This document shows positions 1,756-49,781 of a stretch of DNA of 64,000 bases, one piece after another (positions within the stretch are counted from its first letter, which is position 1; the number at the start of each line of letters is the position of its first letter). Position numbers and translations under genes: made by a program. The stretch spans positions 1 to 64,000 of IMG/VR virus record IMGVR_UViG_3300042191_000299; one strand, written 5' to 3'. The notes under the pieces were generated by a model that saw nothing but the letters and a program-made list of their open reading frames with translations, was not told the DNA's origin and searched no databases. The stretch is from a virus.

Positions 1756-2055
1756 TCAGCGCATCCTCCGGCGACGTGCGCCGCGCAGCGATTCAGACGA
1801 CGTTTCGCCCGCCAGCTTGCACGCGATCTCAGCGCCGCTCTTCTTGCACACAGCACTGGCCGGCGACAGCACAAAGTCTAGACGTGCCTTCCCGGTGACG
1901 TGGACCCCACGGAAACGCACCGTGCGCGCCCTCACGTGCTGCGAACGGTACTGCTGTGGCTCGAAGCCTTTGCTACAGCCAAGCCGCACCTCCGCGCGAC
2001 CGGCGCCATCCAGCACGATGAACCGGACGATGCAATCTTTGGGCGTGAGCGCCAT
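1756..2055 (-). CDS. hypothetical protein
   Basis: Internal ATG of the listed 1756-2244 ORF overlaps the upstream stop (TGATG). High GC3. The C-terminus is Arg-rich and uncertain. Confidence 0.4.
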   Translation of the reverse strand: MALTPKDCIVRFIVLDGAGRAEVRLGCSKGFEPQQYRSQHVRARTVRFRGVHVTGKARLDFVLSPASAVCKKSGAEIACKLAGETSSESLRGARRRRMR

Positions 2056-2288
2056 CAGCGACGCCTCCAGCACTTCCGGCGGCGCGACCCCGCCAGCCCC
2101 GCGCCCGGACCGCGCCTCACGATCTCCACCCCTTCGATGGAGCAATTGGACCCAACGCTCCACGGATTGAAGTCGGCGCCCTTTCGGATCGCCGCAGAGG
2201 GCGTGGGTCCGACCACGGGGACCTTCTTCCGCCCGTGCGGGCACCTGACGGTGACCTCGGCGATCCAGATGGAGGGGAGCTGCGCCAT
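2055..2288 (-). CDS. hypothetical protein
   Basis: 77 aa. ATG lies 1 nt after the upstream stop. High GC3 throughout. Confidence 0.45.
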   Translation of the reverse strand: MAQLPSIWIAEVTVRCPHGRKKVPVVGPTPSAAIRKGADFNPWSVGSNCSIEGVEIVRRGPGAGLAGSRRRKCWRRR

Positions 2289-2289
2289 T

Positions 2290-2631
2290 TCATTTCGTCA
2301 GTTTGTAGACGCCGATGCCCAGCCCCAACGTCGCCAGGGCCATGCCCAGGCCGAGCCAAATCTTCTCGGGAATGATACCCATCGCGGGCCCCTGCAGCGA
2401 CGGCGTCATCAGCCCTTCGCCCACCGCGCACTTGCGGGAGATGGCCGTGTGCACGGCGGCGATCTTCTTGTGCACCGCGCGCGCCAGCGACGGCTTGTTG
2501 GCGGTGGCCTGCGAATAGGCGTCGAGTCCGGCCCACGCCTGCACGATGGTCTGCTGGGCCACTTGGCAATTCCCGGCGGCCAGTGCCGCCTTCGCGTAGT
2601 TCACCGCGGCCAGGATCTCTGCTCGCGTCAC
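2290..2631 (-). CDS. hypothetical protein with C-terminal TM anchor (lysis-cassette candidate)
   Basis: GTG start overlaps the upstream stop (GTGA). C-terminal IWLGLGMALATLGLGIGVY. Confidence 0.5.
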   Translation of the reverse strand: MTRAEILAAVNYAKAALAAGNCQVAQQTIVQAWAGLDAYSQATANKPSLARAVHKKIAAVHTAISRKCAVGEGLMTPSLQGPAMGIIPEKIWLGLGMALATLGLGIGVYKLTK

Positions 2632-3095
2632 GCTTGGCTCCTGTAGTAGGCGATGCCCCCCACGACAGCTCCGGTGAGTACCAGCGCGCCGAGCCCGAAC
2701 CACAGCACCCTGCGCATCATGCGTGCGCGATCAGCCAGCAGCGTGTTCTGGCGCTGCACCGCCTCCAGCTCCTGTGGCGACAGCGCGCCCATGTGCACAG
2801 CCATCGGCCCGTCACGGCCGGTGCCACGCGGAGCCCCGACACCGCACGCGAGCATCGTCAGATCGTGCGTGTGGCCGTCACTCGGATCCGGCTGGACCTT
2901 GAAGTTTCGCACCACATGGTAGTGGCCGCTCGCCAGGTCAGTGTTCCCTGTGCCCTCTTTGTTCAACCACGCGCCGTGGTTGTGCACAGGATACATCCGC
3001 CCCGGATTCTGCGTCGTGAGCTGACACGGGAATCCGGGGGGCTGGACGGACGCGTACTTGACGGCGTCCGGATTGGGGTACTGCGTGTGGCGCAT
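2628..3095 (-). CDS. hypothetical protein, His-rich, C-terminal TM anchor
   Basis: Starts at MRHTQYP. Contains GHYHVV..DGHTHD. C-terminal VLWFGLGALVLTGAVVGGIAYY. Confidence 0.5.
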   Translation of the reverse strand: MRHTQYPNPDAVKYASVQPPGFPCQLTTQNPGRMYPVHNHGAWLNKEGTGNTDLASGHYHVVRNFKVQPDPSDGHTHDLTMLACGVGAPRGTGRDGPMAVHMGALSPQELEAVQRQNTLLADRARMMRRVLWFGLGALVLTGAVVGGIAYYRSQA

Positions 3096-3105
3096 CGGCC
3101 CCTTT

Positions 3106-3846
3106 TCAGTAGCCGGCGTAGGGGTTCTGCCGAACGTTGCCCTGCGCGTCCGAATACTGCGTGACGCGACCACCGCAGATGGTGACGAACAGGCCGTCGC
3201 GGCGGGGTCCGATGCGCTCGCACTGCTCGTTCACTGGGGCGGGGATGAACGTCTGGATGAAGCGATGCGACCGGCGACGAGGAACGCCGAACACCGCGCC
3301 GAGGAATCCCTTGATGCCCGTGGCGAGGGGCGCCGCGGGAGTTGGAACGGCCACCACCACCGGCGTGACGGCGGGGGGAGCCGCCTCGGGAGCCAGCGGC
3401 GCCGTCTGGAATGGCATCGATCGCTGAATGCGCTGGCCGGCGTTACGCACGCCGTTGCGAATGTTCGAGCCGCTCGGCGACACGCCCGGGATCACGCCGG
3501 CTCGCATCACCATGTACGGGTCGACGTGCGAATGCCCCATCGGCATCGTTCCCCCGGTGGAGCCGAAGCCACCGAAGCCACTTCCCGCCACGCCACCGGC
3601 CTTGGGCACCACGGGGGCGACCGGCACGACGGGCGGCGCCGGCAGGGGTACCGCTGGCAGCTCGGACGGCCCCATATAGTTGTTGTAGGCTGGCCGATAC
3701 ATCCCCGCCGCGGACGTCATCGCGTGCGTCACCTGCGTGAGCGGGTGGAAGTGGGTGAAGAACCCCGAGTTCGGCAGCTTGGGTTGAAAATTCGGCGACG
3801 CGCCGGCGGGGCGCTGAAACGGTGTGCGCGTGGCTCCAAGAATCAT
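3106..3846 (-). CDS. Pro/Gly-rich hypothetical protein
   Basis: 246-aa ATG ORF. First gene of the minus-strand block that ends with the endolysin. Confidence 0.5.
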   Translation of the reverse strand: MILGATRTPFQRPAGASPNFQPKLPNSGFFTHFHPLTQVTHAMTSAAGMYRPAYNNYMGPSELPAVPLPAPPVVPVAPVVPKAGGVAGSGFGGFGSTGGTMPMGHSHVDPYMVMRAGVIPGVSPSGSNIRNGVRNAGQRIQRSMPFQTAPLAPEAAPPAVTPVVVAVPTPAAPLATGIKGFLGAVFGVPRRRSHRFIQTFIPAPVNEQCERIGPRRDGLFVTICGGRVTQYSDAQGNVRQNPYAGY

Positions 3847-3920
3847 GTGATCACCTCGTTAGAGAAAGAATAGGGCTAGACGAGGCACCGGGTCAAATGA
3901 GGGGGGATGACCCGCGTGAC

Positions 3921-4390
3921 GTCGCATCTTCTAAGCCGGTGCGCAGGCGCTGTGACTTTGTCCTTCGCGATAGCCCCGCCAAGCTCATGAATCACGTCGC
4001 GCCAACAAAGCCGGCGCGCAGGCTCTGTGACTCGACCACCGGAACCCTTCCGCGAGCGACGAGACGGTAGTCGCACCAACAAGGCCGATGCGCAGGCTTT
4101 TGAGACCGTAATCCCAGCCAGCAGCTCGTCGAGCGTCGGCGTGTCGCACCAACAAGGCCGATGCGCAGGCTTTTGAGACATGGTGCAACCATCATCCCGG
4201 CGTTGTGCTTGTGTCGCACCAACAAGGCCGATGCGCAGGCTTTTGAGACACAGACGCAGGAGTTCGACGCCTACTCGCAGGCGTCGCACCAACAAGGCCG
4301 ATGCGCAGGCTTTTGAGACTCTACTTTCTTCGCGACACCACCAACGACAGATGGTCGCACCAACAAGGCCGATGCGCAGGCTTTTGAGAC
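3921..4390 (-). CRISPR. CRISPR array 1: 7 units (5 identical 37-nt repeats plus 2 divergent 36-nt distal units), 6 spacers of 33-39 nt
   Basis: Repeat GTCGCACCAACAAGGCCGATGCGCAGGCTTTTGAGAC at 4070, 4143, 4213, 4283 and 4354. Divergent units at 3921 and 3996. Spacers at 3957-3995, 4032-4069, 4107-4142, 4180-4212, 4250-4282 and 4320-4353 are all unique. The degenerate end is distal to the effector gene. Confidence 0.93.
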
Positions 4391-4440
4391 CTACCCCATA
4401 AAAAGCCGCGTCTTATTCAGCTATTGAGTTGTCAATCGCG
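4391..4440 (-). promoter_or_regulatory. CRISPR leader (relatively AT-rich), homologous to the array-2 leader
   Basis: Minus strand reads ATTGACAACTCAATAGCTGAATAAGACGCGGCTTTTTATGGGGTAG. This is about 80% identical to 49527-49573 and lies in the same position relative to the first repeat. Confidence 0.65.
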
Positions 4441-4481
4441 CGAACCCCCCGAACGCCACCACCGTAGGCGGCGGCCAGCAC

Positions 4482-6170
4482 CTACGTTCGCGCGCCGTTC
4501 TTTGCACTCAGCGCCAGCAGATTGTTGCACGCGTTCAAATCTTGATCGCGTACACGCCCGCATGCAGCGCACGTGTGCATGAGCTGCGACTGATCCCATG
4601 TATCCTCACAGCCACATTCGTCGCAGCGCCGCGTGGTCATCGCCGGGTCGAGCTTGACGAATGTGCGCCCGAGCTTCCTGGCTGTGTCGATCAGGGCTAT
4701 CCGCAGTTCGTGCGGAGATCCCATCATCCGCCAGTATCGCTCGGCGTTCGGAACGGGTGCGTCTTCCGCCTTTGGCTTGGCCGCAAACTTGCGCAGGTCG
4801 AAGTCCTCCAGCACCAGCGTGTCGTACCGGGCAAGGAGCGTGCGCGCAAACATGCGGTAGAAATCCAGCCGGCGCGCGAGCGCCTTCTCACGCTGGTTGA
4901 TCGACCAGTCGCGGTAGTGCCAGAAACGCCGAACGCGCCACTCGTTGAGCGGCGAGAAGATCGCTTCGTCACCAGCGAACCGGTTGTCCTTCCACCACCA
5001 CACCGCTGATGACAGCCGTTTCGCGTTTCGCCACTGCGCCAGGTTCTCCAGACGCGCCGCGTGCTCGGGGGGCAGCGTGTTGGCCTTAGCCCAGGTGACC
5101 AGCTCGCCCCGCATCTTCTCGAACCAGTGGGTCTCCACACCTAACAACTGCGACGGGTAGTCCAGGGCGGACAGAAGCTCGTTGTCGAGTCGCACCTCCC
5201 CCTCGTTTCCCTTGTCGTCCTTCCAGTACGCCACGCGCAGGCCGCCGTTGCCCTTCTCGGCGACACGCCATCCGAGGTCGAGCGCCACACGGCCTTCGCC
5301 AGCAGCCACGGCTTGAGCAAACTCGCGGGACTCCACCGTGATGTGCAGTTCGTACGCCCAGGCGCGTCCGCGGCGCCAGCGGTACAGCCACGCCCACATG
5401 ATTTTCGCATCGTCCGGCAGCGGTCGATGGACGACAGCCGTGAACGTCACCCACAGCGGATCGCGTCCGACCGAACCGGCGCGGAGACTGCATTCAGCCA
5501 AATACTTGCCGCGCGACCGTCGCGTGCCGGGCAGCTCCCGCATACGAAAACGCCGGTCGCCCGCAAGCCGCGCCACGGTCATGCCCTTCTGGATCTGCAC
5601 AGCGATGCGCCCTTCGCCCGTGCGTGGCTTATGCCGAGGGTCCATCAGGGCCTTGCGCTGCTGCTCGGCTGCCTTCTCGCACACCAAATATGTGCCCCAG
5701 TACAGGTCCGACGCTGCGCGCTCTTCGATGATGCGCGCGTGGTGCCGCGCCTCAATTTCGTCCAGCCGTGCCTTGGTGGGGGGATCTGCTGCAGCTGCAG
5801 ATCGTTCCGCCTTCCAGGCTTTTCGCGCAACAGCGAGCTGCGCCTTGGCCTCTTTGATCGTCTGGCGCGTCTCGGCCGTCATCGTGCGCTTGCGTGCGGC
5901 TGCGTTGGCCTCGCGTGCTTGCTTGTATAGCGTCTCCACCGTCGCCTCTTCCCGGGCCACCCGCTGCCCTATCTCGATAACAGTAGGGGCCTCGTCGAGC
6001 ACGGCGCGAACGGCAGTGCGCCGCTCCAGCTCCAGCGTGACGAGCTTGGTGCGGTAGTCATCCGCCTTGCAATACTGATCGTCGGCGAGGGCTTGCCCTT
6101 CGGTGATGCCGCGGGGGTGGACACCGTAGACGTAGATGCGTGTAGGAACGGACGACGTTTTTCGCTTCAT
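4482..6170 (-). CDS. cas12: miniature type V CRISPR effector (TnpB/Cas12-like RuvC nuclease), 562 aa
   Basis: ATG 6170 overlaps the upstream stop (ATGA); the longer 605-aa listing adds a Pro/Arg-rich N-terminus. RuvC-I VALDLG (D298), RuvC-II LVLEDF (E455), zinc ribbon CDECGC..HTCAACG, RuvC-III RDQDLNACNN (D544). N-terminal strand IYVYGV plus a long helical insert. The array begins 91 nt downstream. Confidence 0.85.
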   Translation of the reverse strand: MKRKTSSVPTRIYVYGVHPRGITEGQALADDQYCKADDYRTKLVTLELERRTAVRAVLDEAPTVIEIGQRVAREEATVETLYKQAREANAAARKRTMTAETRQTIKEAKAQLAVARKAWKAERSAAAADPPTKARLDEIEARHHARIIEERAASDLYWGTYLVCEKAAEQQRKALMDPRHKPRTGEGRIAVQIQKGMTVARLAGDRRFRMRELPGTRRSRGKYLAECSLRAGSVGRDPLWVTFTAVVHRPLPDDAKIMWAWLYRWRRGRAWAYELHITVESREFAQAVAAGEGRVALDLGWRVAEKGNGGLRVAYWKDDKGNEGEVRLDNELLSALDYPSQLLGVETHWFEKMRGELVTWAKANTLPPEHAARLENLAQWRNAKRLSSAVWWWKDNRFAGDEAIFSPLNEWRVRRFWHYRDWSINQREKALARRLDFYRMFARTLLARYDTLVLEDFDLRKFAAKPKAEDAPVPNAERYWRMMGSPHELRIALIDTARKLGRTFVKLDPAMTTRRCDECGCEDTWDQSQLMHTCAACGRVRDQDLNACNNLLALSAKNGART

Positions 6171-6406
6171 TTGAGTACCTCGGTTAGAAGGGTCCGGAGC
6201 GCGTCCAGGCGCGCGGTTGGAAACTCCGTGACGCACTCGTTGCGTGAGATTTCGTGGTCTGTGCTGCACAGCCGTCGCAGCGACCGGAAGATGCGGCACG
6301 CGGCGACCTTCACTTGGTCACGCGTGCCGTGGCGCAGATCGTCCATGTCACCAGCGATCAACTCCTCGCGCACGCCGAGCTGGTCGAGCAGCTGCGCGAG
6401 CGTCAC
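6167..6406 (-). CDS. small helical protein, paralogue 3 of 3 (C-terminal LLTEVLK)
   Basis: 79 aa. ATGA overlaps at both ends. Shares its C-terminal motif with the two upstream ORFs. Confidence 0.6.
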   Translation of the reverse strand: MTLAQLLDQLGVREELIAGDMDDLRHGTRDQVKVAACRIFRSLRRLCSTDHEISRNECVTEFPTARLDALRTLLTEVLK

Positions 6407-6624
6407 TTGAGCACCTCAGCCAGAAGAGCCCGAGCGTCGTCGAGGCCCGGATGATCAACATCGCTGCGAAGCGTGGACAACTCCGCCGGCAACGGTTCAA
6501 GCAGGCGAGCAATCGTTTCGAACACCTTGCGCGTGCGCGGCCCCGCGCCGTGGGTGCACGAAATTCGCGCGGCTGCCAGCTCCTGGGGCGACACGTTGAC
6601 GTGGAGAAGAAGCGCCGCGTTCAT
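6403..6624 (-). CDS. small helical protein, paralogue 2 of 3 (C-terminal LLAEVLK)
   Basis: 73 aa. ATGA overlaps at both ends. Confidence 0.6.
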   Translation of the reverse strand: MNAALLLHVNVSPQELAAARISCTHGAGPRTRKVFETIARLLEPLPAELSTLRSDVDHPGLDDARALLAEVLK

Positions 6625-6866
6625 GAGGGCAGTACCTCCGCGATCAGTGCCGTGACGTCCGAAAACGCAGCGACTGCTGGTGCCGGATCCTCGCCGAAGT
6701 CAATCGCCCGCGCAAGCGCGTCGCGCCCCGCGGCCACGCGCTTGTCGATGACAGTGAGAACACGAAGTAAGCTGTCCCGCTGCTGGACGGGCGCGTCGGC
6801 GAGCAGGCGCCGCACGTGCTCAACGTCTCCTATGTGCACGTCGACTACCGTGTTGCCAGTGCTCAT
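6621..6866 (-). CDS. small helical protein, paralogue 1 of 3 (C-terminal LIAEVLPS)
   Basis: Internal ATG (MSTGNTVV) overlaps the RHH gene stop. 81 aa. Confidence 0.55.
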   Translation of the reverse strand: MSTGNTVVDVHIGDVEHVRRLLADAPVQQRDSLLRVLTVIDKRVAAGRDALARAIDFGEDPAPAVAAFSDVTALIAEVLPS

Positions 6867-7057
6867 TTCTTCACTGTCTTCTGCGTGGCGGCGGCGACAG
6901 CCTGGCGCACGAACCGGCTCAAGCTCTGGCCGCGCGCGGCCGCGTGCTGCTTCCACACCCCCCATTCGTAGTCGCCCACGCGCAGTGACCGCGGGGGCAT
7001 GGTTTCGGTGCCGGGGAGCAGCGCAACACGGAGAACGGGCAACGGCTTTTTTGGCAT
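6863..7057 (-). CDS. ribbon-helix-helix (CopG/Arc-like) DNA-binding protein
   Basis: 64 aa. Strand RSLRVGD followed by helices EWGVWKQHAAARG and SLSRFVRQAVAAA. First gene of the effector operon. Confidence 0.7.
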   Translation of the reverse strand: MPKKPLPVLRVALLPGTETMPPRSLRVGDYEWGVWKQHAAARGQSLSRFVRQAVAAATQKTVKK

Positions 7058-7066
7058 CAGTCGCGA

Positions 7067-7098
7067 ACACTACCACAGCAATACACGAGCGCAATACG
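7067..7098 (-). promoter_or_regulatory. candidate promoter/operator of the RHH-effector operon
   Basis: Minus strand reads TTGCGC-N16-TAGTGT, ending about 10 nt before ATG 7057 (near-leaderless). It overlaps two direct GTATTGC repeats, also found at 39234-39268. Confidence 0.45.
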
Positions 7099-7119
7099 CA
7101 AACCGACATACGCGCGCCT

Positions 7120-7350
7120 TCATTTCCGCCCCTTCACCGCGTCGATGAGCCCCGCGAGCGTGTTGCGCACCTGCCCCATCGCCATCGTGCTGGCCATGGT
7201 GGCGTAGGTGTACGCCCAGCCGATCAGGCAGGAAACGGAGCAAACCACAATGGCAACCGTCTGCACCCCTTGCGCGTTGACCCGTTGAACGGCGAAGTGC
7301 GCCCGCACGTGTTTGCGGCACTTCGCGCACGTGAGCGGCACAGCGGTCAT
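7120..7350 (-). CDS. hypothetical small protein with one hydrophobic segment
   Basis: Starts at MTAVPLTCAKC, overlapping the ThyX stop. 76 aa. Confidence 0.5.
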   Translation of the reverse strand: MTAVPLTCAKCRKHVRAHFAVQRVNAQGVQTVAIVVCSVSCLIGWAYTYATMASTMAMGQVRNTLAGLIDAVKGRK

Positions 7351-8216
7351 CCGGGCACGCTTTCGTTGGGCAGGGACATGCGGTAGGACCGCCACCCGGT
7401 GAGCTTGCCCACACGCTCGTCCGTCGCCAGCGCCTGCGCCACATGCTCCCCAGGTGCCGCGTGTGGCGGGTCCTGCACGATCAGTTTGTCGTGCAGCGCG
7501 ATGTCTTCGCGAATGTCACGCTTCCCGGCGTGTGTCAAGTAGCTCACACGTGCAGCTCGCCCGACGGCAATTTTGACGAGCAGCGCGTTGTGGGCGGCAC
7601 GCTCAGGCTCGCGGTGAATGCGCACACTCGGATCGATGAGCCCCCAGACGGCATTTCGATCCTCCGTCTCGATGAACGGCAGATGCCATTCGCCCGCCGC
7701 CAACTTCAGCGGCACCGATGCCTCCTTCGCGGCGCGCATCATCCGTGCGATCGTCTGGAAGTGTGGCTCTGCAGCCTTGTGACACCGGAGCGCCCACAGG
7801 TTGTTCCAGTCTGTTGCTGTGAAAATGACGGTGATCCACATCCACGGCTCAAGCAAACGATTCGTGACCTGCTTCGCAACTTCCAGCGCCATCATTCCTC
7901 GGGCGTGCTCCACGGCACTGTCACGGGCGCTCAGCCACATCTTGATGGCCTTTTCTCGCGCCTCCCCTGTCAGCTCCTCTTCGGCCTGCATGCCCTTCTG
8001 GGCCTTACCGATGTGGTCGGGGATGAACGGATCTTCCAGCACCCGCTGAATCATCTTCTCGATTGGGATCGCCCGCGAGCTGGCCGACGACCGCGATAAC
8101 GCACAGTGCGTGAGCAGCTCGGAATGGATGATCCGCGGATACGTGGCCACGATGGTGGTGATCCTCCTGCCGCTCGGGCCGATCGAGTCGGCAATTACTT
8201 TCGCTGAAAATGCCAT
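7347..8216 (-). CDS. thyX: ThyX-like FAD-dependent thymidylate synthase homologue
   Basis: Starts at MAFSAKV. HSELLTHCALSRSSASSRAIP resembles the ThyX RHRxxSxxxxSxR block, but HC replaces HR. Confidence 0.65.
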   Translation of the reverse strand: MAFSAKVIADSIGPSGRRITTIVATYPRIIHSELLTHCALSRSSASSRAIPIEKMIQRVLEDPFIPDHIGKAQKGMQAEEELTGEAREKAIKMWLSARDSAVEHARGMMALEVAKQVTNRLLEPWMWITVIFTATDWNNLWALRCHKAAEPHFQTIARMMRAAKEASVPLKLAAGEWHLPFIETEDRNAVWGLIDPSVRIHREPERAAHNALLVKIAVGRAARVSYLTHAGKRDIREDIALHDKLIVQDPPHAAPGEHVAQALATDERVGKLTGWRSYRMSLPNESVPG

Positions 8217-8268
8217 CAGGCGCTCCTCTCGGTGATCGGGCATACCTGTGTTGTCAGGCGCGTTTCTT

Positions 8269-8955
8269 TCACCCACATTTCGAAACCGGGGATGGTCGGG
8301 AGGGTCGTGTCTGCATAACGGCGGACAGCGTGGTCGCGATGCGCTCGTGTACCTCCTCGGGGGTACCGTGACCATCGACCGTCACCCATCGGCCAGGCGC
8401 GCCGGGTGCTGCCCAGATGCGCTTGTAGTTCTCCCGGACAGTGCGCTGCTTTGCGCGGTCCTTCTCGTATCGATCGCGCAGCGTCGGGCGCCGGCGCAGG
8501 GCCTCCTCTTCCGTCACGTCGATGAAGATGTTGATGGCGGGATCGGGTAGGCACGCCTGGACACGCCACAGCCACTCCTCCGAAAGACCGTCGGCGCTGC
8601 CGTACGCTACAGCAGAGGGTTTCCAGCGATCCAGCACCAAGTGACTGCCTTGGGCCGTGCTGAAGTGAATCACAGGCGCGGCAGCCGCCTTGTCCGCCAG
8701 CATCAAGCGCTGAAAAACCAGCGCATCGTCCGGCGCGCGCGTGTAGCCTTTTCCCTCGTTGCCGAATCCCCCCGGAGTGGACACGGCCGTGAGCTGCGTG
8801 CGCCCCTGCAGATGGTCGAGGATCGCTTTGCCCGTAGGTGTGTCGTAACGAGGAAAAGCCAGCGGTGGCTTAAGCGGAGAACACAGCTTCTGCGCCAACA
8901 GCTCCGCTTGGGTGTGCTTCCCCACGGCATCACCGCCTTCGATGCAAATCAACAT
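8269..8955 (-). CDS. tmk: thymidylate (dTMP) kinase
   Basis: Starts at MLICIEGGDAVGKHT (P-loop). DRW/AYG lid-region pattern. Confidence 0.8.
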   Translation of the reverse strand: MLICIEGGDAVGKHTQAELLAQKLCSPLKPPLAFPRYDTPTGKAILDHLQGRTQLTAVSTPGGFGNEGKGYTRAPDDALVFQRLMLADKAAAAPVIHFSTAQGSHLVLDRWKPSAVAYGSADGLSEEWLWRVQACLPDPAINIFIDVTEEEALRRRPTLRDRYEKDRAKQRTVRENYKRIWAAPGAPGRWVTVDGHGTPEEVHERIATTLSAVMQTRPSRPSPVSKCG

Positions 8956-8957
8956 GG

Positions 8958-9713
8958 TCACTCCTTCATTGTTGGGTCGAGCGGCCCCTCGACAACTCGT
9001 TGGGCCACGCAGTATCGGCAATGCGGGTCATGCACGTGGTGCTCCTGGCACACCCACGGCAACGGCGGCAGCTCCTCGACTTCAATTCCACCCACCGCGG
9101 CCGTCACTGCCTCTACCGCCGCCTCGGGGTTGAACCCAGTGAGCAGCGCGGCCGCTTCCTTGTCGTCGCCCCCCGCGTACACGCGCCTCGCGCGCTCGGT
9201 CACCGCCACCTTGGCCTGCTCGGCCGGTGTCAGCTTGCGCGAGATCGCCACCGCCTGCTCGGTGTAGTTCGCGTCTTGCCCCGGCTCCCGGCCGCCGATG
9301 GTGTTGTGGATGTAGCAGAAGCGCGACGGTGGCACGAAGCACGCCAGGCCCACCCCCCCGCCGGCCAGGCCGAGACGCAGAAACTGCCCCACCTGCACCG
9401 CGTTCATTCCGTCGAAGCCGCGCACGCCCAGGTGATGGAACACGCCGGTGCAGCCGAGCTTGGCAATGTCGCCGCCGGTGTGGCATTCGCAGGCGAGAAG
9501 AATGCGCCGCACGCGCATTGCTGAGGCGGCGCGTGCTTCGGCCGTAGTTTCGTTCAGGCCAAACGTCATGCGCTCAATCAGCCGCTGGTCACTGACCACA
9601 GCGCGTCCGTTTTCGAACGTGACGACCAGTTCCTTGTCCGGATCAGACGGGCGCACCGGCTGGTGGGCGATTCGGGGCTTGCGCTTGAACAGACGGGCGA
9701 TGAACTTGAACAC
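8958..9713 (-). CDS. hypothetical protein
   Basis: 251-aa ATG ORF with balanced composition and Cys/His-rich ends. Confidence 0.55.
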   Translation of the reverse strand: MFKFIARLFKRKPRIAHQPVRPSDPDKELVVTFENGRAVVSDQRLIERMTFGLNETTAEARAASAMRVRRILLACECHTGGDIAKLGCTGVFHHLGVRGFDGMNAVQVGQFLRLGLAGGGVGLACFVPPSRFCYIHNTIGGREPGQDANYTEQAVAISRKLTPAEQAKVAVTERARRVYAGGDDKEAAALLTGFNPEAAVEAVTAAVGGIEVEELPPLPWVCQEHHVHDPHCRYCVAQRVVEGPLDPTMKE

Positions 9714-13127: not shown

Positions 13128-13459
13128 GCTGTCCTCAGCAACGCCTGCGCGGCTATCGCGGCCTTGTACGCCAGCGCCAGGGGCGCCGCGAGAATTTCCT
13201 CGATCTCCGCGTCGGCGCATGGCGGCACCTCCACAAGCTGAAAGCCCTGCGGATAGTGGCGCACGTATTCGTTCCTCATCGGCAGTGTCAGACCCGTATC
13301 GCTACGCATCCACGCCTCTGTGCTGCTCACGCCGTGTGCCAGCCGCGTTCCGTCTTCTGCCAGCGCCGCCCAATCCCAGTCCACGACGGATGCGCCGGGG
13401 AAATCGTTGACACGGCGAACCGCCCACAGAATGAAGATGATCGGCAGATCGGCGCTCAC
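13124..13459 (-). CDS. hypothetical protein
   Basis: GTG start in a GTGA overlap with the upstream stop. 111 aa. Confidence 0.45.
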   Translation of the reverse strand: MSADLPIIFILWAVRRVNDFPGASVVDWDWAALAEDGTRLAHGVSSTEAWMRSDTGLTLPMRNEYVRHYPQGFQLVEVPPCADAEIEEILAAPLALAYKAAIAAQALLRTA

Positions 13460-27091: not shown

Positions 27092-27128
27092 ATCGCACCA
27101 ACGAAGCCGGTGCGCAGGCGCGATTCAC
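27092..27128 (-). repeat. solitary CRISPR repeat unit (sense to local transcription)
   Basis: Minus strand reads GTGAATCGCGCCTGCGCACCGGCTTCGTTGGTGCGAT. 27 consecutive nt are identical to the array-2 repeat. It fills the gap between the HerA-like stop (inside the unit) and the next start. Confidence 0.8.
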
Positions 27129-28882
27129 TGTTCAAGAAACACCTCGGATAGGTTGAGCGTCTCGCCGTCATCGCCGATCAGCTCCAGGTCACGCAACGAT
27201 TTGATCGTGCGTCCAAACGACGAGCTGGTCTGGCTATAGCCCGTCATTGCCGACAATTTCTCGCGTGACAGTGCATTCGCACCATGGATAGCGTTGTCGT
27301 AGATCGCCGATAGCATCCCAGCTTCCTGCGGCTGCAGTGTGCACATCCAATGGTCCAGCAGCGCACGCCCCGTGGGCAACGGCGCGGTCGTGCCGGCCAG
27401 CTCTCGGCCAGCGGTGGTGATCGTGTAGCGCGCCGGCGTCCCTTCGATGAGCCCGTCTTGCGCGAGCCGCGCGATGTTGCGGGGGAAGGCGCTCGACGAG
27501 CGGCGATAGCCGGACAACGTCGAGATTTGTGAAGCGCTGGCGGACCCCCGCTGCGCCACCACCGCCAGCAGCTCCCGCGCATATTGGGGGAGGGTGCCTT
27601 CGACTTCGGGCCGTCGCGCAGGCGCCGAATTCGCCTTTGCCAACATGCCGTTCATGTTGGGGGTGTTGCGTATCTTGCCAGGATCAAAGACGCCGTTGTG
27701 CTGGTTCAGCGGTACGGGCTGCGGCGCCGTTCGTCGGACCGCGGTCAGCAGCTCGTTCAGCTGCACGGACAGCTTCTGCTGCGTCGGCGCCAGGCGATCC
27801 GCCCAGCTCTCGATCACTTTGACCATCGCGGCGCTGAACGCGTTTTCGCTCTTGGCCAGCGACTCCACGATCTTCTCAATGCGCGCCAGCTCGGCCGGCT
27901 TCACCGCCGCCACTTCCTTCGCCGGCGCCGCAACGGCCGCGGGCTTCTTCGTCAACTCGCGCTCCAGCTCGGCGACGCGCGCACGTAGTGTTTTGGGGTC
28001 GCTGGCCTTGGCCTCCTCGATGGTGGCTGCCATCGCCGTGCGCACCTCGTCGAGATCAATTGGCGCCAGCTTGTGGCTTTGCGTGTCGGATCCATCGGGC
28101 GTCGCCGACGCGTCGAACGTTCGCTTCTTGCGGAACACCGTCCGCACGGCGCCCGACTCTTCCCATGCGATCATCGTTCCCTTGGGCAAATCGGGCAACA
28201 GCTTAATCATGTCGTCCGATGCACCGTTGGCATTCGCCCATCCGTCGATGCGCTTGATGTCCTCTGGCGCCTTGAGCTTGCCTGTGAAGATTTTGTCCGA
28301 AAGGTTGAGCGCCCCCTTGTTCACCTCCGCCGCACGCTGTGAAACGATGGTCCCACCGATGCCGTAGTTGCGGCCGATCTTCCACAGGCGCTTCGTCGCC
28401 CCTGCCATCGGCGCCTGGGCCGCGTCGACGAACTGCGGAAAGAATTCGTGGCCTTCCTCGAAGACCATGTGCAATGGCGATTTGTTGCGCTTCTTGAGAT
28501 TGAAAACCTCGCGGCACAGATCGGTGGCGAAACGGCGCTGCTCACCCTCGGTGAAGTCGCTGATATCGAGCACGCACGACATTCGATGGTTCACGATGAG
28601 CGACGCGACCAGCGCACCGCCTGTTGGCTCAAGCGGCACGTCGCCATGCAGGCCTCCAAACACAGGAACGTCGTAGCCCTTCGACTTGCCGTTGGTCGAC
28701 AGGCGCAGTCCGTACCAGGACCCGACGGGATCCACGACCACCACCTGCACGCCTGCATCGAGAAACTCTTCGACCAGCACGCCGGCGGCGTAGCTTTTCC
28801 CTGTGCCGCGCGTGCCCAGGAAGGCGTACGTGGACGTCGCGGCGTTCTTCGGCAGCGTGACGTCGTGCGACAAGCGGTACAT
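27125..28882 (-). CDS. HerA/FtsK-like (DUF87-type) P-loop ATPase with two C-terminal winged-helix repeats
   Basis: Walker A FLGTRGTGKSY, Walker B-like HMVFEEGHEF. C-terminal repeats ...ISTLSGYRRSSSAFPRNIARL and LSAMTGYSQTSSSFGRTIKSL. Confidence 0.7.
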   Translation of the reverse strand: MYRLSHDVTLPKNAATSTYAFLGTRGTGKSYAAGVLVEEFLDAGVQVVVVDPVGSWYGLRLSTNGKSKGYDVPVFGGLHGDVPLEPTGGALVASLIVNHRMSCVLDISDFTEGEQRRFATDLCREVFNLKKRNKSPLHMVFEEGHEFFPQFVDAAQAPMAGATKRLWKIGRNYGIGGTIVSQRAAEVNKGALNLSDKIFTGKLKAPEDIKRIDGWANANGASDDMIKLLPDLPKGTMIAWEESGAVRTVFRKKRTFDASATPDGSDTQSHKLAPIDLDEVRTAMAATIEEAKASDPKTLRARVAELERELTKKPAAVAAPAKEVAAVKPAELARIEKIVESLAKSENAFSAAMVKVIESWADRLAPTQQKLSVQLNELLTAVRRTAPQPVPLNQHNGVFDPGKIRNTPNMNGMLAKANSAPARRPEVEGTLPQYARELLAVVAQRGSASASQISTLSGYRRSSSAFPRNIARLAQDGLIEGTPARYTITTAGRELAGTTAPLPTGRALLDHWMCTLQPQEAGMLSAIYDNAIHGANALSREKLSAMTGYSQTSSSFGRTIKSLRDLELIGDDGETLNLSEVFLEQ

Positions 28883-39287: not shown

Positions 39288-39292
<5 letters not shown>
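39234..39292. promoter_or_regulatory. cluster of short repeats: GCGCAATAC x2 direct plus 1 inverted; TTGCGTCAGT x2
   Basis: GCGCAATAC-TTGA-GCGCAATACG-TTAT-GTATTGCG at 39234-39268. TTGCGTCAGT at 39264 and 39283. GAGCGCAATACG is also present at 7087-7098. Confidence 0.55.
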
Positions 39293-39960
<668 letters not shown>

Positions 39961-39986
<26 letters not shown>

Positions 39987-42275: not shown

Positions 42276-43448
42276 ATGACCAACCTGACCGCCATCCTCC
42301 GCGCCGCTCTCTTCTGCCCCGGGCCCGAGGGCTTCTGGGGTCTGCCACTGCTCCTGTGGGGGGAGCCGGGCGAAGGGAAGACCGCCGTCATCAAGGCTCT
42401 GGCATTGCAGCTGGGGCTCCCCTTCCACCGCCTGTCGCCGGCCGAGCAGGGCGAGGGCCGCTTTGGGGTGGTGCCAGTCCCGGGCATCGATGGCCTGCTG
42501 CATTACCCACCGCCGGCCGATCTGGTCACGCTGTTCGGTGACGGGGGACTCCTGTTCGTGGATGAGATCTCCACCGCGCCGCCGGCGCTGCAGGCCCCCC
42601 TGTTGGGGCTGGTGCAGCTGCGCACTTTGGGCAACCACACCTTCCCTGCCCGCACACGCATGATCGGTGCCGGCAACGAGACCCGCGACGCCGCGGGCGG
42701 CTGGGACCTGGCGCCCGCGCTCTGCAACCGGTTCGGCCACATCGACTACAGCGGCCTCGAAGCGAACGCGTGGGCCGGTGGGCTGTTGGGGCACTTCTCG
42801 AACATGGATGGAGCGAGCCCAGGCGATCCTCTGCCGGCGGCCGCGCTGGAGGCGATGGTCATGGAGGCGTGGCCCGCGGCGGACGCCCACGCGCGCGGCT
42901 TCGTCAGCGCCTTCATTCGCGTGCGGCCCGAGCTGCTGCGCAAGCGCCCCGCCAAGGGCTCCCCCAACCGCGCCTGGCCGAGCCCCCGCTCGGTCGAATA
43001 CGCCACCGTGGCGCTCGCCTCAGCAAAGGTACACAACCTGTCCGAAGCAGACACCGACGAGCTGATGAGCGCCTTCGTGGGGCAGGGCTGGGTGAGCGAA
43101 TACCGCGCGTGGTCGGCCATGGCCGATCTGCCCAACCCTAGCGAGCTGTTGGACGGCAAGGTCAAGTTCGAGCACGACAATCGTCGGCTCGATCGCACGA
43201 TGGCCGTGCTGTCCGCGTGCGCTGCGCTGGTGATTCCTGTCGATGCGAAGAACCGCCTTGATCGCGTCCGAACGCTGTGGGGTTTGATCGCCGCGGTGTC
43301 TAAGGATGCGCCCGACACCGTCATCCCGATCGCCCGCGAGATCCTCAAGGTGCGCCTGCTGCTGAAAGGCGCGGGCATCCAGCAAGACACCTTGGCGGCG
43401 CTCCTGCCTCTGATGGTGCAGGCTGGCATCGCATCGGACGTGGTGTAG
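42276..43448 (+). CDS. MoxR/CobS-like AAA+ ATPase
   Basis: Walker A LLWGEPGEGKT, Walker B LLFVDEISTAPP, sensor CNRF. Confidence 0.8.
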   Translation: MTNLTAILRAALFCPGPEGFWGLPLLLWGEPGEGKTAVIKALALQLGLPFHRLSPAEQGEGRFGVVPVPGIDGLLHYPPPADLVTLFGDGGLLFVDEISTAPPALQAPLLGLVQLRTLGNHTFPARTRMIGAGNETRDAAGGWDLAPALCNRFGHIDYSGLEANAWAGGLLGHFSNMDGASPGDPLPAAALEAMVMEAWPAADAHARGFVSAFIRVRPELLRKRPAKGSPNRAWPSPRSVEYATVALASAKVHNLSEADTDELMSAFVGQGWVSEYRAWSAMADLPNPSELLDGKVKFEHDNRRLDRTMAVLSACAALVIPVDAKNRLDRVRTLWGLIAAVSKDAPDTVIPIAREILKVRLLLKGAGIQQDTLAALLPLMVQAGIASDVV

Positions 43449-43450
43449 CC

Positions 43451-44788
43451 GTGGCGAAAGCGGCCATGTCGCCACGTCAGAGAGTCGGCGTAGCCGTTGC
43501 GCGCATCACCGATCCGGGCACCGGCTACGCCCCATACTTCGGCGCCATGCTACGGGGCTTCGTGCGCCGCGAGATGTCCGCCGAGATGGAAGCGGCCATG
43601 AACGCCGTGGGGCTGATGCCGTCAATGGCGGTGTCAGCGGACGGGATCCTGTTCTGGTCGCCGACATTCGTCATGGAGCGGTCGATCGGCGAGCTGGCCT
43701 TCGTGCTCATGCACGAGACGATGCACGTGGTGCTCAAGCACTTCAGCCGCGCGAAGGCGCTGGGCGTGACGCCGGAGCGCCAGGCGCTGGCGAACATGGC
43801 GCAGGACGCGTGCATCAACGAGGAACTGCGGAAGGGCTGGCCGCACTTGGGCAAGGAAGGCATCTACCCCGAGTCGTTGGGGCAACCGCTGGGGCTGGTG
43901 TTCGAGGAGCGTTACCGCCGGCTGCTGCAGGAAAGGGCGAAACAAGACGGCGGCGCGGCTGACGGTGGTGGTGAAGGTGGTGCCGACAAAAAGCAGGGCG
44001 ATGGCCCGGGGCGCGGATGGTGTGGCAGCTGCGCCAACCATCCTGTGCCCGGGGAGGCACCCCCGGGCAGCAGCCGCGACGCGCGGTCAGAGGCGGAGAT
44101 GGAACGCTTTCGGCGTGAGACGGCCCACGCGGTGAAGGCGCAGTCCAACAAGGGACGGGGCATCGTGCCGGACAGCCTCAATCGATGGGCGGACCAGATG
44201 CTGGCGCCCCCCGTGGTCGACTGGCGCACGAAGCTGGCCCGGTCGGTGCGCGCCGCGGTGTCCTACCGACCGGGTGCGGTGGACTTTGCCTGGACGAAGG
44301 TGTCACGGCGCCAGGCAGGAATCGGCTACGGGCCGGGGCGCCCGATCGTACCCGGGTTCCGCGCACCGGTGCCCCGGGTCGCCTGCATCGTCGACACATC
44401 AGGGTCAATGGGCGAGGTCGAGCTGACGGCGGCCGCGAGCGAGCTGCAGGGAGTGCTGGGGGCGGTGGGCGCCGACGTCACGGTGTGCACGGTCGATGCG
44501 GCGGTGCACGACCTGCAGCAGGTGTCGTCGATTCAGGCGGCGTGCGCGCTGATGAAGGGCGGCGGGGGAACGTCGATGACCCCTGGGTTCGAGGCGCTCG
44601 CCAAGCACCAGCCGCGCTCCGAGGTGGTTATCGTGCTGACTGACGGTGAGATCGGCGATGGCTACCCTGCAGTCGAACCGGCGTGGTGCAAGACGATCTG
44701 GTGCGTGGTGGGGAGCTACGCCGGCGATCCCTGCCCGTGGGGTGAGACGATCCACATTGAAGAGCAGCACGCGCAGGAGGCAGCGTGA
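43451..44788 (+). CDS. VWA-domain protein with N-terminal HExxH (DUF2201-like) domain
   Basis: MHETMHVVLKH. MIDAS motif CIVDTSGSM. VVIVLTDGE. GTG start (alternative ATG at 43466). Confidence 0.8.
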   Translation: MAKAAMSPRQRVGVAVARITDPGTGYAPYFGAMLRGFVRREMSAEMEAAMNAVGLMPSMAVSADGILFWSPTFVMERSIGELAFVLMHETMHVVLKHFSRAKALGVTPERQALANMAQDACINEELRKGWPHLGKEGIYPESLGQPLGLVFEERYRRLLQERAKQDGGAADGGGEGGADKKQGDGPGRGWCGSCANHPVPGEAPPGSSRDARSEAEMERFRRETAHAVKAQSNKGRGIVPDSLNRWADQMLAPPVVDWRTKLARSVRAAVSYRPGAVDFAWTKVSRRQAGIGYGPGRPIVPGFRAPVPRVACIVDTSGSMGEVELTAAASELQGVLGAVGADVTVCTVDAAVHDLQQVSSIQAACALMKGGGGTSMTPGFEALAKHQPRSEVVIVLTDGEIGDGYPAVEPAWCKTIWCVVGSYAGDPCPWGETIHIEEQHAQEAA

Positions 44789-47203: not shown

Positions 47204-48078
47204 GGCCCCGGTCGGACCGGCGCGTTGCGCAGCTCATGCACCAGCGTGACTGCTGGGCGCGCATCAGCGATCGTGAACCCGCGCCCAGCCAGCGTCGCCT
47301 CGTACACGCCCGTGTGCAGCTCCGCAAAGCCGTCGTTGAAATCCATCGGCTCGCCATCGATCGCCATGACACGCGTCGGCTCCCCGTGCAGTGACAACCG
47401 CCAATTCACGTTGGCGTGTTTGAGCGCCAGGAAGCCGCGCGCCTGGTTGTCCCCCCGCTCGTACATGCGGTGCTCCTCACATGGCCCGAAGAGCCACAGC
47501 AGCAGGTCGAACATGTGAACGCCAATGTTCGTGATGAGCCCACCGGAGCGTTCGACGTTGCCCTTCCAGCTGTGGGCGTACCAGCGGCCGCGGGGGGTAA
47601 CGTAGTCGAGCGTGACCCGGTGGGGGCCAGGCTGGGCGCCGAGGTACTTCTTGAGCGCGCCGATGCGGGACAGGAGGCGACACTGCAGGACGGTGTAGAC
47701 GCGCTTACCATACAGTTGCTCGTCCTCTTCTAGCGCGTCGAGGTTCCACGGCGCGAGCGTGAGCGGCTTTTCGCAGATGACGTTGGCGCCGGCCCGCAGC
47801 CCCATCTGGGCGTGCACGTCGTGCAGATGGTTGGGGGAGCATACAGTCAGCCAGTCAATGCCCTGGCCGGCGCGGCGCAGGCGGTGGAGATACCGGTCGA
47901 AGCGCTCGGGCTCCGTGAAGAAGTCAGTCTCGCGGTTGTAGCGGTCCAAGATCCCTGCGGCATCGTGCGGATCGAGTGCTGCCACAAGCGTGCCACCAAC
48001 GGCGCGGATCGCTTCGAGGTGGCGAGGGGCGACGAAGCCAGCACAGCCAGTCATGGCGAAGCGAGGAGGCGCAGTCAC
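47200..48078 (-). CDS. Gfo/Idh/MocA-family sugar-nucleotide oxidoreductase (WbpB-like)
   Basis: N-terminal RFAMTGCAGFVAPRHLEAI, then EKPL and a characteristic C-terminal domain. GTG 48078 is preferred; ATG 48054 is the alternative. Confidence 0.75.
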   Translation of the reverse strand: MTAPPRFAMTGCAGFVAPRHLEAIRAVGGTLVAALDPHDAAGILDRYNRETDFFTEPERFDRYLHRLRRAGQGIDWLTVCSPNHLHDVHAQMGLRAGANVICEKPLTLAPWNLDALEEDEQLYGKRVYTVLQCRLLSRIGALKKYLGAQPGPHRVTLDYVTPRGRWYAHSWKGNVERSGGLITNIGVHMFDLLLWLFGPCEEHRMYERGDNQARGFLALKHANVNWRLSLHGEPTRVMAIDGEPMDFNDGFAELHTGVYEATLAGRGFTIADARPAVTLVHELRNAPVRPGP

Positions 48079-48100
48079 ATCATCCACGATACTTGACGGC

Positions 48101-48118
48101 GTGCCAGTTATCCAGCAG
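48101..48118. promoter_or_regulatory. 18-bp quasi-palindromic motif, copy 4 (GTGCCAGTTATCCAGCAG)
   Basis: Lies between the divergent sugar genes and ends 1 nt before ATG 48120. Confidence 0.55.
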
Positions 48119-48119
48119 C

Positions 48120-49397
48120 ATGCGGAGCGTGTCGGATCCACTGTTTGTCGAGCTGAGGGAGAAGATCACGCTGCGCACCGCGCGCGTCGTAGTAGTGGGC
48201 GGAGGATACGTGGGACGGCCGCTGGCTGATGCGTGCGTGGGCGCCGGTTTCCACACGACCGTCTACGATACAAACGAATCTAAGTGCGCGGAGCTGCGCG
48301 CGGTGAACCATCGCGCCGTGACCGTCTCCGCCGTTCTCCGCAGCGCTGATGTGGTGGTGATCTGCGTCCCCACGCCGCTCAACAAGACGAAGGACCCCGA
48401 CAATACGCACGTGCTGGCGGTGGCCGAAGAGCTGCTGGATAACGCGCACGCACCTCGCCTGGTGATTCTTGAAAGCACAACGTTTCCTGGCTTCACACGC
48501 CAGGTGTTTGCCCCGAAGCTGCATCTGTCTATTGCCAACCGTGACTTCGTCGCCTTCTCGCCAGAGCGCACCGACCCCGGCAACGCCGAATACAATATCA
48601 GCAACACGCCGAAGATTGTGGCAGGTGCGGACGAGGAAAGCGCTGGGCTGGCGACGGCGTTCTACGAAGCATTCGTGGAACGCAAAAACGTCGTCCAGGT
48701 CAGCTCCACTGACACAGCCGAGATGGTCAAGCTGCTGGAGAACACTTTCCGCGCCGTGAACATTGGCCTCGTCAACGAGGTGGCGATCATGTGTCGGCAC
48801 CTCAATCTCGACGTGTGGGAGGTGATCGAGGCGGCCGCCACCAAGCCGTACGGATTCATGCCATTCTACCCGGGGCCCGGCATCGGGGGGCACTGCATTC
48901 CCGTGGACCCCCTCTACCTGTCATGGCAACTGAAGACGCTGCAGTACGATGCGCGCTTCATCCAGCTTGCCGACCAGATCAACTCGGCAATGCCGGCGCT
49001 GGTGGTGGACCGCGTGACCGAGGCTCTCAATGGTTTGGGCTTGGCGGTGCGCGATGCGAATATTCTTCTGCTCGGCGTGGCCTACAAACCGGGTGTGGGT
49101 GACGTGCGAGAGTCACCCGCGTTGGAGATTTTGGCCTGTTTTGAGAAACGCGGCGCTGCGGTAGTGTATTTTGATCGGTATGTTGAAAGTGTCACCACGA
49201 AGCGGTATGCGGTACTACCGTCGTGTCGGCGTCTGGACAGCGCCCTGTACGCAGCATGTGCCTGCGCGGTCATCGTCACGGACCACCCCGACGTGGATTA
49301 TGAGGAGATCGTGCGCAGCGTGCCGGTGACGGTGGACTGCCGGAACGCGACGAAGGCATTTCGCGCGAAGTACCCCGGGAAGGTGGTGATGCTTTGA
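48120..49397 (+). CDS. UDP-sugar 6-dehydrogenase family (WbpA/WecC-like nucleotide-sugar dehydrogenase)
   Basis: Rossmann VVVVGGGYVGRPLA, catalytic GGHCIPVDP. 425 aa from ATG 48120. Confidence 0.8.
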   Translation: MRSVSDPLFVELREKITLRTARVVVVGGGYVGRPLADACVGAGFHTTVYDTNESKCAELRAVNHRAVTVSAVLRSADVVVICVPTPLNKTKDPDNTHVLAVAEELLDNAHAPRLVILESTTFPGFTRQVFAPKLHLSIANRDFVAFSPERTDPGNAEYNISNTPKIVAGADEESAGLATAFYEAFVERKNVVQVSSTDTAEMVKLLENTFRAVNIGLVNEVAIMCRHLNLDVWEVIEAAATKPYGFMPFYPGPGIGGHCIPVDPLYLSWQLKTLQYDARFIQLADQINSAMPALVVDRVTEALNGLGLAVRDANILLLGVAYKPGVGDVRESPALEILACFEKRGAAVVYFDRYVESVTTKRYAVLPSCRRLDSALYAACACAVIVTDHPDVDYEEIVRSVPVTVDCRNATKAFRAKYPGKVVML

Positions 49398-49523
49398 TGT
49401 GCCCGCGAGCGCCGCGGTGGTGAGCCGATCTCGGGAGGCGCTCGATCACAGCAGTTTCGCGTGCTTGCACTTCGGTTGCCGTACATTCTTGGCTGGCATG
49501 AGCGCGTGAAACAGCCACCGCTC

Positions 49524-49573
49524 GAAACTGACAATCAAATAGCCGAACAAGACACGGCTTTTTCTAGTGAGCC
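49524..49573 (+). promoter_or_regulatory. CRISPR leader 2, homologous to the array-1 leader
   Basis: ACTGACAATCAAATAGCCGAACAAGACACGGCTTTTTCTAGTGAGCC aligns with the minus strand of 4391-4436. Confidence 0.65.
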
Positions 49574-49765: not shown

Positions 49766-49781
49766 CATCCCCGGACTGCGA

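Follow-up and report, generated by a model that had tools for sequence, protein, structure and literature searches.

The 64,000-nucleotide (nt) stretch of viral DNA analysed here (IMG/VR virus record IMGVR_UViG_3300042191_000299, positions 1 to 64,000; hereafter the window) carries on its minus strand a gene for a compact CRISPR effector, cas12m, followed by a CRISPR array. Taken as a whole, the data are best explained by a type V-M Cas12m cassette on a phage-like element, which probably binds DNA under the guidance of CRISPR RNAs (crRNAs) without cutting it. The protein is new as a sequence, and the kind of system is already known. The new point is comparative: the borders of the cassette are defined by a relative that is without it.

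The effector gene occupies positions 4482-6170 (minus strand), where an open reading frame (ORF) of 562 amino acids (aa) is present and intact. A GTG-initiated longer reading of the same frame reaches 6299. Three features favour the ATG at 6170 as the start: its overlap with the stop codon of the ORF upstream (ATGA), a GAGG lying 9 nt before it, and its use by an independent gene call on a Logan contig encoding the identical protein. A preliminary description of this DNA, made from the sequence alone, had read the product as a TnpB/Cas12-like RuvC effector of 562 aa with a zinc ribbon. This reading holds, the protein being a TnpB-derived type V effector: the RuvC motifs RVALDLGWRV (D298), TLVLEDFDL (E455) and RDQDLNACNN (D544) and the zinc-ribbon cysteines C516/C519 and C534/C537 are all where it had placed them.

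We identify the protein as a full-length Cas12m, and the locus as a type V-M system, because a full-length profile, the sequences of solved structures and the modelled fold all match. More specifically, the PADLOC profile Cas12u1 aligned with residues 10-555 over profile positions 3-530 of 533 (E = 2.6e-87). Cas12u1 is the old name of Cas12m, and type V-M was formerly called V-U1 or c2c4. The full-length span aligned with Cas12u1 is also matched by a PADLOC model that bears the label 'Cas12f' (PDLC01692, E = 9e-84) and evidently includes V-U1 sequences. Among Protein Data Bank (PDB) sequences searched with phmmer, the best match was 23vw, a 'CRISPR-associated DNA-binding protein Cas12m' of 577 aa (E = 6e-66, residues 23-560), with further matches to UnCas12m4a (1e-25), Cas12m2 8hhl (6e-23) and GoCas12m (3e-13).

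The structure was modelled with AlphaFold2 using 46 homologues as input, which gave a mean predicted local distance difference test (pLDDT) score of 93.1 and a predicted template-modelling (pTM) score of 0.85. The model shows long helices at residues 26-172 and the domain order WED strand, coiled-coil REC, WED, RuvC (D298/E455/D544) and zinc-ribbon TNB (C516/C519/C534/C537). In a Foldseek search, Cas12m structures ranked at the top with a clear gap to all others: template-modelling (TM) scores were 0.79/0.75 for Cas12m2 8hhl (E = 6.6e-33) and 0.80/0.75 for GoCas12m 8pm4, and the next families were Cas12f (~0.43), TnpB (0.37) and CasPhi (0.25-0.30).

Other small RuvC effectors were considered and rejected. 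TnpB and Cas12f share the RuvC and zinc-ribbon core with the window protein, and the only Pfam match, the C-terminal Cas12f1-like TNB domain PF07282 (6.7e-10), is a C-terminal domain common to them. They differ in that only the last 70-125 residues match by sequence, in that the TM scores are no more than 0.37-0.43 and in that both are without the long coiled-coil REC; furthermore, TnpB (about 350-550 aa) uses an omega RNA within an insertion sequence (IS) element, usually with tnpA, and Cas12f (400-550 aa) is a dimer with a trans-activating CRISPR RNA (tracrRNA). For TnpB, the NCBIfam model guided_TnpB scored 44.9 bits against a cut-off of 100 and covered residues 432-553 only, the TM score to ISDra2 TnpB was 0.37, and the position of an omega RNA is occupied by a CRISPR array. 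For Cas12f, the NCBIfam model Cas12f2 scored 18 bits against a cut-off of 450, PDB Cas12f chains covered residues 484-552 only, the TM score was ~0.43 and there was no anti-repeat. For Cas12j (CasPhi), phmmer gave E = 0.2 to CasPhi-3 and Foldseek gave TM 0.25-0.30 to 7odf, 7m5o and 7lyt. Cas12j and Cas12l (Cas-lambda) are likewise single small RuvC effectors found with an array on phages and without adaptation genes, with a presumed role in competition between elements; they form a separate lineage, however, and use the RuvC site both to cut DNA and to mature crRNA, whereas the tested Cas12m proteins do neither.

With the characterised Cas12m proteins (MmCas12m2, 8hhl; GoCas12m, 8pm4; MsCas12m; PmCas12m; 23vw) the window protein has in common its size, domain order, fold (TM 0.79-0.80), coiled-coil REC and zinc-ribbon TNB. 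The locus likewise has their 36-37-nt repeats, with a 5' handle that folds as a pseudoknot and ends in GAC, it shows neither a tracrRNA nor adaptation genes, and the triad is D-E-D as in Cas12m clades 3 and 4. The window protein is slightly shorter (562 aa, against 596 aa for the Mm protein and a 614-aa chain for the Go protein) and differs in sequence, being ~22-24% identical to Cas12m2 and GoCas12m by structural superposition and ~33% identical, over 70% of the query, to a homologue on an Allomeiothermus silvanus plasmid. The carrier also differs, a phage-like element here and a plasmid or chromosome for the characterised proteins. The preliminary description had raised the possibility of a new type V lineage borne by phages. 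The profile and Foldseek checks that it proposed have now been run; with a match to a characterised subtype by profile, solved-structure sequence, fold and repeats, in a large family of which virus-encoded members have been published, the claim of novelty falls and the annotation stands.

The size of the family is evident from cluster representatives (50% identity), at least 1,523 of which match the window protein at E <= 1e-30; its nearest relatives are ~50% identical and lie on metagenomic contigs. Homologues carry D-E-D or N-E-D. Relatives were found at 68 IMG/VR loci, about 40 of which have an array directly downstream on the same strand, an arrangement also seen in the closest metagenomic relatives. 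The 68 IMG/VR viral contigs (L007-L074), many of them 100-230 kb long, compare with 22 loci (L133-L154) from 185,579 GTDB representative genomes, mostly on short contigs of metagenome-assembled genomes (MAGs); the two scans used different search patterns, so that this contrast is indicative only.

Among published viral cases, the virus Rctr197k (KX853510.1, 197 kb, from a methane-oxidising enrichment culture) encodes a D-E-D homologue, 31% identical over 95% of the query, that is directly followed by an annotated CRISPR repeat_region with the same pseudoknot-type repeats, and a distantly related PolA (26%). It differs in that the gene is annotated 'similar to transposase', the array has ~20 repeats and the genome is jumbo-sized. 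The myxophage MV-1 likewise has a phage-borne D-E-D effector, MvCas12m, with a short array and without cas1/cas2/cas4 or tracrRNA, and no protospacers were found for it either (bioRxiv 10.64898/2026.09.14.751636); compared by description, it differs in having 610 aa, D305/E463/D555 and 8 spacers, against 562 aa, D298/E455/D544 and 6 spacers in the window. That preprint of September 2026 describes its Cas12m with array as the first in a bacteriophage, a claim contradicted by KX853510.1 (GenBank, 2016) and by the IMG/VR loci. In landfill viromes (2025), too, virally encoded effectors cluster with Cas12m/V-U1 (PMC12607003).

The array lies at 3921-4390 on the strand of the gene and consists of seven repeats (36-37 nt) separated by six spacers (33-39 nt); the seven units and the 91-nt gap to the gene were thus correctly read in the preliminary description. 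The five leader-proximal repeats (4354-4390, 4283-4319, 4213-4249, 4143-4179 and 4070-4106) are 37 nt long and identical: GTCTCAAAAGCCTGCGCATCGGCCTTGTTGGTGCGAC. The two distal repeats (3996-4031 and 3921-3956) are degenerate and 36 nt long, and in the first of these stem 2 of the repeat structure described below is preserved through compensatory changes (CGCGCC/GGCGCG), as read from the sequence. By eye, the distal degenerate repeats, which start with GTCACAG-, resemble the GTCACAA- or GTTGCAA- of several related arrays more than do the five young repeats with their GTCTCAA-. The exact repeat had no match in IMG/VR or in JGI metagenome contigs, so arrays with the same repeat are absent from those sets.

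To evaluate the repeat structure, 26 distinct repeats from related loci were aligned and one structure was tested, in which a stem of 3 bp (columns 10-12 with 21-23) interleaves with another of 6 bp (columns 15-20 with 30-35) and AC follows. Pairing was found in 94.9% of cells across the 26 repeats, compared with 25-45% when the partners were slid. Changes on both sides of a pair occurred in 67 cells, eight of the nine pairs covary, and none of 500 shuffles reached the observed values. The fold of the single repeat is not significant on its own (z = -1.1), and it is covariation that carries the argument. This result shows that the repeats form the Cas12m-type crRNA pseudoknot, an architecture described for the crRNAs of Cas12m2 and GoCas12m (PMC10442227, PMC11013384). 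The handle shares the layout of the Cas12m2 crRNA, with a 6-bp stem ending at -3 and then A(-2) (PMC10442227). A U-G pair in the window repeat and the conserved 3' GAC identify the strand of the gene as the one transcribed in the array.

The 91-nt leader (4391-4481, minus strand) lies between the stop codon of cas12m and the first repeat, and neither a sigma-70-type promoter nor a terminator was found in it; read-through from the cas12m operon would therefore be the simplest model for transcription of the array. Outside the array, the longest repeat-complementary stretch within 2000-9000 is 11 nt long and lies inside a coding gene, which gives no evidence for a tracrRNA, and no Rfam family was matched. 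No cas1, cas2 or cas4 was found by PADLOC among 10 neighbouring ORFs, in agreement with the preliminary description, and PHROG and Pfam searches of about 40 window ORFs gave no Cas match. Absence of tracrRNA and of adaptation genes is typical of type V-M (PMC10691335). Beyond the last repeat, a promoter-like site (TTGACC, 18 nt, TATTCT; 3867-3896, minus strand) precedes the downstream gene 3106-3846 and is conserved in a syntenic relative. A seventh spacer after the last repeat was considered and rejected, as the sequence there is this conserved promoter.

The relative is L157 (IMG/VR IMGVR_UViG_3300049215_000496, 89 kb), in which 20 window proteins have syntenic homologues with 33-76% identity (PolA 69%). 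In L157, the homologue of 7120-7395 is followed by 187 bp and then by the homologue of 3106-3846. Alignment of the conserved promoter region between the window and L157 sets the boundary, with the promoter marking the distal edge. Window positions 3910-7119 (minus strand) are on this comparison a 3.2-kb accessory cassette, in which an Arc-like gene, three small ORFs and cas12m are followed by the leader and array; its accessory status rests on its absence from L157, the closest syntenic relative.

The first gene of the cassette (6863-7057, minus strand) encodes an Arc-like ribbon-helix-helix repressor (phrog_6506 'Arc-like repressor', E = 5.6e-8; weak matches to Pfam RHH_1 and DUF6290). It is followed on the same strand (6167-6866) by three small ORFs at 6621-6866 (81 aa), 6403-6624 (73 aa) and 6167-6406 (79 aa), as called on the Logan contig. 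These share a C-terminal motif, AL(L/I)AEVL, and look like tandem paralogues; they had no PHROG, PADLOC or Pfam match and no homologue in the other fetched loci, including those beside other cas12m genes. Overlapping stop and start codons link all coding genes of the cassette, and the small ORFs are in this way coupled to cas12m.

The intact ORF and the five identical repeats make a functional locus likely. We regard it as very improbable that the locus is inert or in decay, or that a transposon gene of the TnpB type just happens to lie beside repeats. Adaptation genes were not found, the array is short with two degenerate repeats, and the NCBIfam TnpB models match the C-terminus below their cut-offs, all of which would suit such an origin. 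Against it stand the conserved motifs, all of them present in the intact 562-aa frame, the confident fold prediction, the repeat structure conserved by covariation alongside the identical repeats, and the translational coupling of the gene within an operon. The full-length match, moreover, is to Cas12m and not to TnpB, which has about 400 aa and a TM score of 0.37, and tnpA was not recognised in the ten neighbouring ORFs scanned with PHROG and PADLOC (IS ends were not searched for).

What the protein does to its target depends on how the triad is read. In the summary given in PMC10442227, Wu et al. distinguish four Cas12m clades by triad (HEK/HQK, HDD, DED/NED and DED/DND/NED), with DED, NED or DND in clades 3 and 4; the D-E-D of the window protein fits clade 3 or clade 4 of that list. 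Four of the eight Cas12m orthologues studied by Bigelyte et al. (2024; PMC11013384) are D-E-D, and Cas12m proteins with D-E-D (all four), H-D-D and N-D-D showed binding of double-stranded DNA (dsDNA) dependent on a protospacer-adjacent motif (PAM), without dsDNA cleavage. Pre-crRNA processing persists in MsCas12m D274A and is hence independent of RuvC (PMC11013384). Conversion of Cas12m2 from HDD to DED did not restore cleavage, and its RuvC pocket binds the non-target strand via one Mg2+ ion (PMC10442227). PmCas12m also binds without cleaving and processes crRNA independently of RuvC, giving a mature crRNA with a handle of ~33 nt and a guide of ~17 nt (bioRxiv 10.64898/2026.03.26.714355). Because the tested D-E-D Cas12m proteins bind without cleaving, and the one assayed for pre-crRNA processing achieved it independently of RuvC, the intact triad is not evidence for a nuclease, and the argument of the preliminary description from the triad to nuclease or crRNA-processing competence is not supported.

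We propose the following mode of action. The cassette would be transcribed as one minus-strand transcript, from the Arc-like gene through cas12m to the array, as the overlapping codons and the leader without promoter or terminator suggest. The pre-crRNA would be processed to crRNAs of ~50-56 nt with a pseudoknotted, repeat-derived 5' handle and a guide of ~17-20 nt; here the fold comes from covariation, and the sizes and the RuvC-independent processing are taken from MmCas12m2, MsCas12m and PmCas12m. By analogy with every Cas12m tested, D-E-D orthologues included, the Cas12m-crRNA complex would then recognise PAM-flanked dsDNA, form an R-loop and stay bound to the uncut target, blocking its transcription or replication. 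The likeliest targets would be rival phages, or further mobile elements that share the host, and the outcome would be superinfection exclusion. The gain of new spacers would have to rely on recombination or, in trans, on an adaptation module of the host.

Several observations weigh against this explanation, and they concern the triad, the targets and the carrier. D-E-D is found in 45 of 55 IMG/VR relatives and in most metagenomic homologues, and its retention implies selection for some activity beyond what the published assays explain. Furthermore, the assayed orthologues are all at most about 33% identical to the window protein. An active RNA-guided DNA nuclease, in which the D-E-D RuvC domain would cut its target in the manner of Cas12f, Cas12j or TnpB and enable the phage to destroy its competitors, would account for the intact D298/E455/D544 triad and zinc ribbon and for what looks like purifying selection; a nuclease has also been suggested for MvCas12m (bioRxiv 10.64898/2026.09.14.751636), and none of the assayed orthologues is close. 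However, D-E-D orthologues assayed for dsDNA cleavage and collateral activity showed neither (PMC11013384), introduction of DED into Cas12m2 brought no cleavage, and the Mg2+-mediated binding of the non-target strand offers a non-catalytic reason for conserved acidic residues (PMC10442227). We consider a nuclease unlikely and retain it as a live alternative because the conservation of D-E-D is unexplained.

A relative with D-E-D also bears on this point. In L008 (IMGVR_UViG_3300005764_000026), two array spacers match their own contig perfectly, over 35/35 and 31/31 nt. The protospacers lie at 5127-5187, with the array at 7805-8709; they overlap by 5 bp in opposite, outward orientation, inside an ORF for a Uma2-like endonuclease ~850 bp upstream of the L008 cas12m, and their upstream sequences (CTGC and GAGG) show no obvious common PAM. 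That L008 tolerates two such spacers speaks against cleavage, and fits a non-cleaving mode because self-matching spacers are easier to tolerate when the target is not cut. In the 36-kb IMG/VR phage L039, the leader-proximal spacer 1 matches the near-identical phages L034 and L036 over 30/30 nt at 13312-13341, ~5.7 kb downstream of their cas12m, which would be self-targeting or targeting of very close relatives.

As for the targets, the whole array searched against phage and plasmid databases gave chance-level matches only, the best of which (E = 0.04) runs across a repeat/spacer border. No full protospacer was found in these searches, and the target class is thus unproven. Exact 20-nt seeds of spacers 1, 3 and 5 had no match in IMG/VR. 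The seed of spacer 2 had one IMG/VR match (22 nt, within a small ORF that neighbours a lysozyme-like gene) and 53 matches in soil metagenome contigs, in bacterial HtrA-like protease genes where it encodes FDAYSQA; none is longer than 21-22 nt. We rejected the IMG/VR match as a rival-phage target, since the seed is a word frequent in coding sequence and is not diagnostic of a protospacer. The seed of spacer 4 had four IMG/VR matches, two of them of 22 nt in an HK97-type capsid gene, which is suggestive only. Common 20-mers of GC-rich coding sequence could account for these 20-22-nt matches of spacers 2 and 4. The targeting of rival mobile elements is suggested by analogy with arrays borne on mobile elements (PMC11656645) rather than by a match of this array.

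Closer to home, the first 20 nt of spacer 2 match positions 2507-2526 (plus strand) with 2 mismatches (positions 9 and 20) and GTG upstream. This site falls within 2290-2703, a gene of the element itself that is located two genes downstream of the array. To judge this weak lead, we used an empirical background in which 0.47% of random 20-mers from GC-rich viral loci reach at most 2 mismatches in the window, or ~3% for six spacers. The L157 homologue of 2290-2703 is without the FDAYSQA motif. There was no perfect self-target in the 74 kb of genome read, no near-match of the other five spacers in the same 74 kb, and a peptide-level search of the spacers against the window was uninformative.

The spacer 2 match would suit a different role, in which Cas12m-crRNA would be a regulatory device and not a weapon, repressing the element's own genes or those of its host, for instance to time lysis or to reprogram the host. 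Its corrected empirical p is about 0.03, many HtrA-like protease genes of soil bacteria contain an exact copy of the 20-mer, L008 carries its perfect self-targeting spacers, the operon is headed by an Arc-like repressor, and self-targeting is harmless with a non-cleaving effector. The mismatch at seed position 9, however, and an upstream GTG unlike the known Cas12m PAMs (TTN, YTN or C-rich) speak against a functional match, as does the silence of the other five spacers. The bacterial matches of a common coding word are unspecific, and the syntenic L157 manages without the cassette. We regard such a regulatory device as improbable, more so than a nuclease. The broader proposal that phage-borne D-E-D Cas12m cassettes are natural viral CRISPR interference ('CRISPRi') devices acting on own or host genes, and not only on rival elements, is a long shot; if it were true, the conserved D-E-D pocket would be there to bind a strand, or for some RNA or DNA activity still to be discovered, and not to destroy targets.

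The last point to be weighed against binding-based exclusion by a phage is the carrier. The preliminary description spoke of a viral genome, placing the gene between lysis and nucleotide-metabolism functions. The flanks are as described, with an endolysin (880-1503) on one side and ThyX (7347-8375) and thymidylate kinase (8269-9021) on the other. The gene content is phage-like and includes, besides these, a family A DNA polymerase, helicases, a primase, exonucleases, a Sak4-like annealing protein and HNH endonucleases. No capsid, portal, tail or terminase was recognised among about 40 window ORFs (PHROG, Pfam, PDB, and phage tblastn on the large ORFs). A viral nature is likely, given the endolysin, the phage-type replication module and the syntenic relative in IMG/VR, though not proven from the window. 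A PHROG 'terminase' large subunit at 27125-28882 (minus strand) was rejected: Pfam identifies it as DUF87/HerA, and its sole phage match is annotated as a HerA helicase. This ATPase has an HVO_A0261_N-like region, and a similar gene is found on the contig of the relative P0003.

The part of the genome read amounts to 74 kb of an element of roughly 94 kb, comprising the window and 9.5 kb to its left, where sugar- and DNA-modification genes are found. Genes for a UDP-glucose dehydrogenase, a group 1 glycosyltransferase, a DegT-type aminotransferase, a hexapeptide transferase and a D12-class adenine methyltransferase are located at 47976-51965 (plus strand) of the window and at 5452-7930 of L155, to the left of the window; the sugar- and DNA-modification genes may serve modification of DNA or of the cell surface. 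A pair encoding a MoxR-like AAA ATPase and a DUF2201 (VWA-like) protein lies at 42276-44788 (plus strand) of the window and, in the closest metagenomic relatives, ~1.5 kb from cas12m (L003, 6078-8516; L004, 315-2753), which suggests an element backbone in common with them. An ORF at 39288-39986 (minus strand), for whose product no family was matched, contains a GGC-rich 9-nt unit in ~33 tandem copies (39358-39659). No tRNAs were found. For inference of the host, the GTDB relatives are at most 36% identical and scattered over many phyla, mostly on MAG contigs.

In summary, this analysis corrects an attractive but mistaken lead: rather than founding a new type V lineage, the effector is another Cas12m, and a nuclease is improbable. 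The analysis adds a well-delimited, putatively mobile Cas12m cassette in a phage-like genome and, together with Rctr197k and the 68 IMG/VR loci, indicates that D-E-D Cas12m effectors with arrays are common on viral contigs. With its 562 aa, the protein would be a compact DNA binder, predicted to be free of cleavage, of the kind now engineered for base and epigenome editing. Phage orthologues such as this one could help to explain why D-E-D is conserved in effectors that do not cleave.

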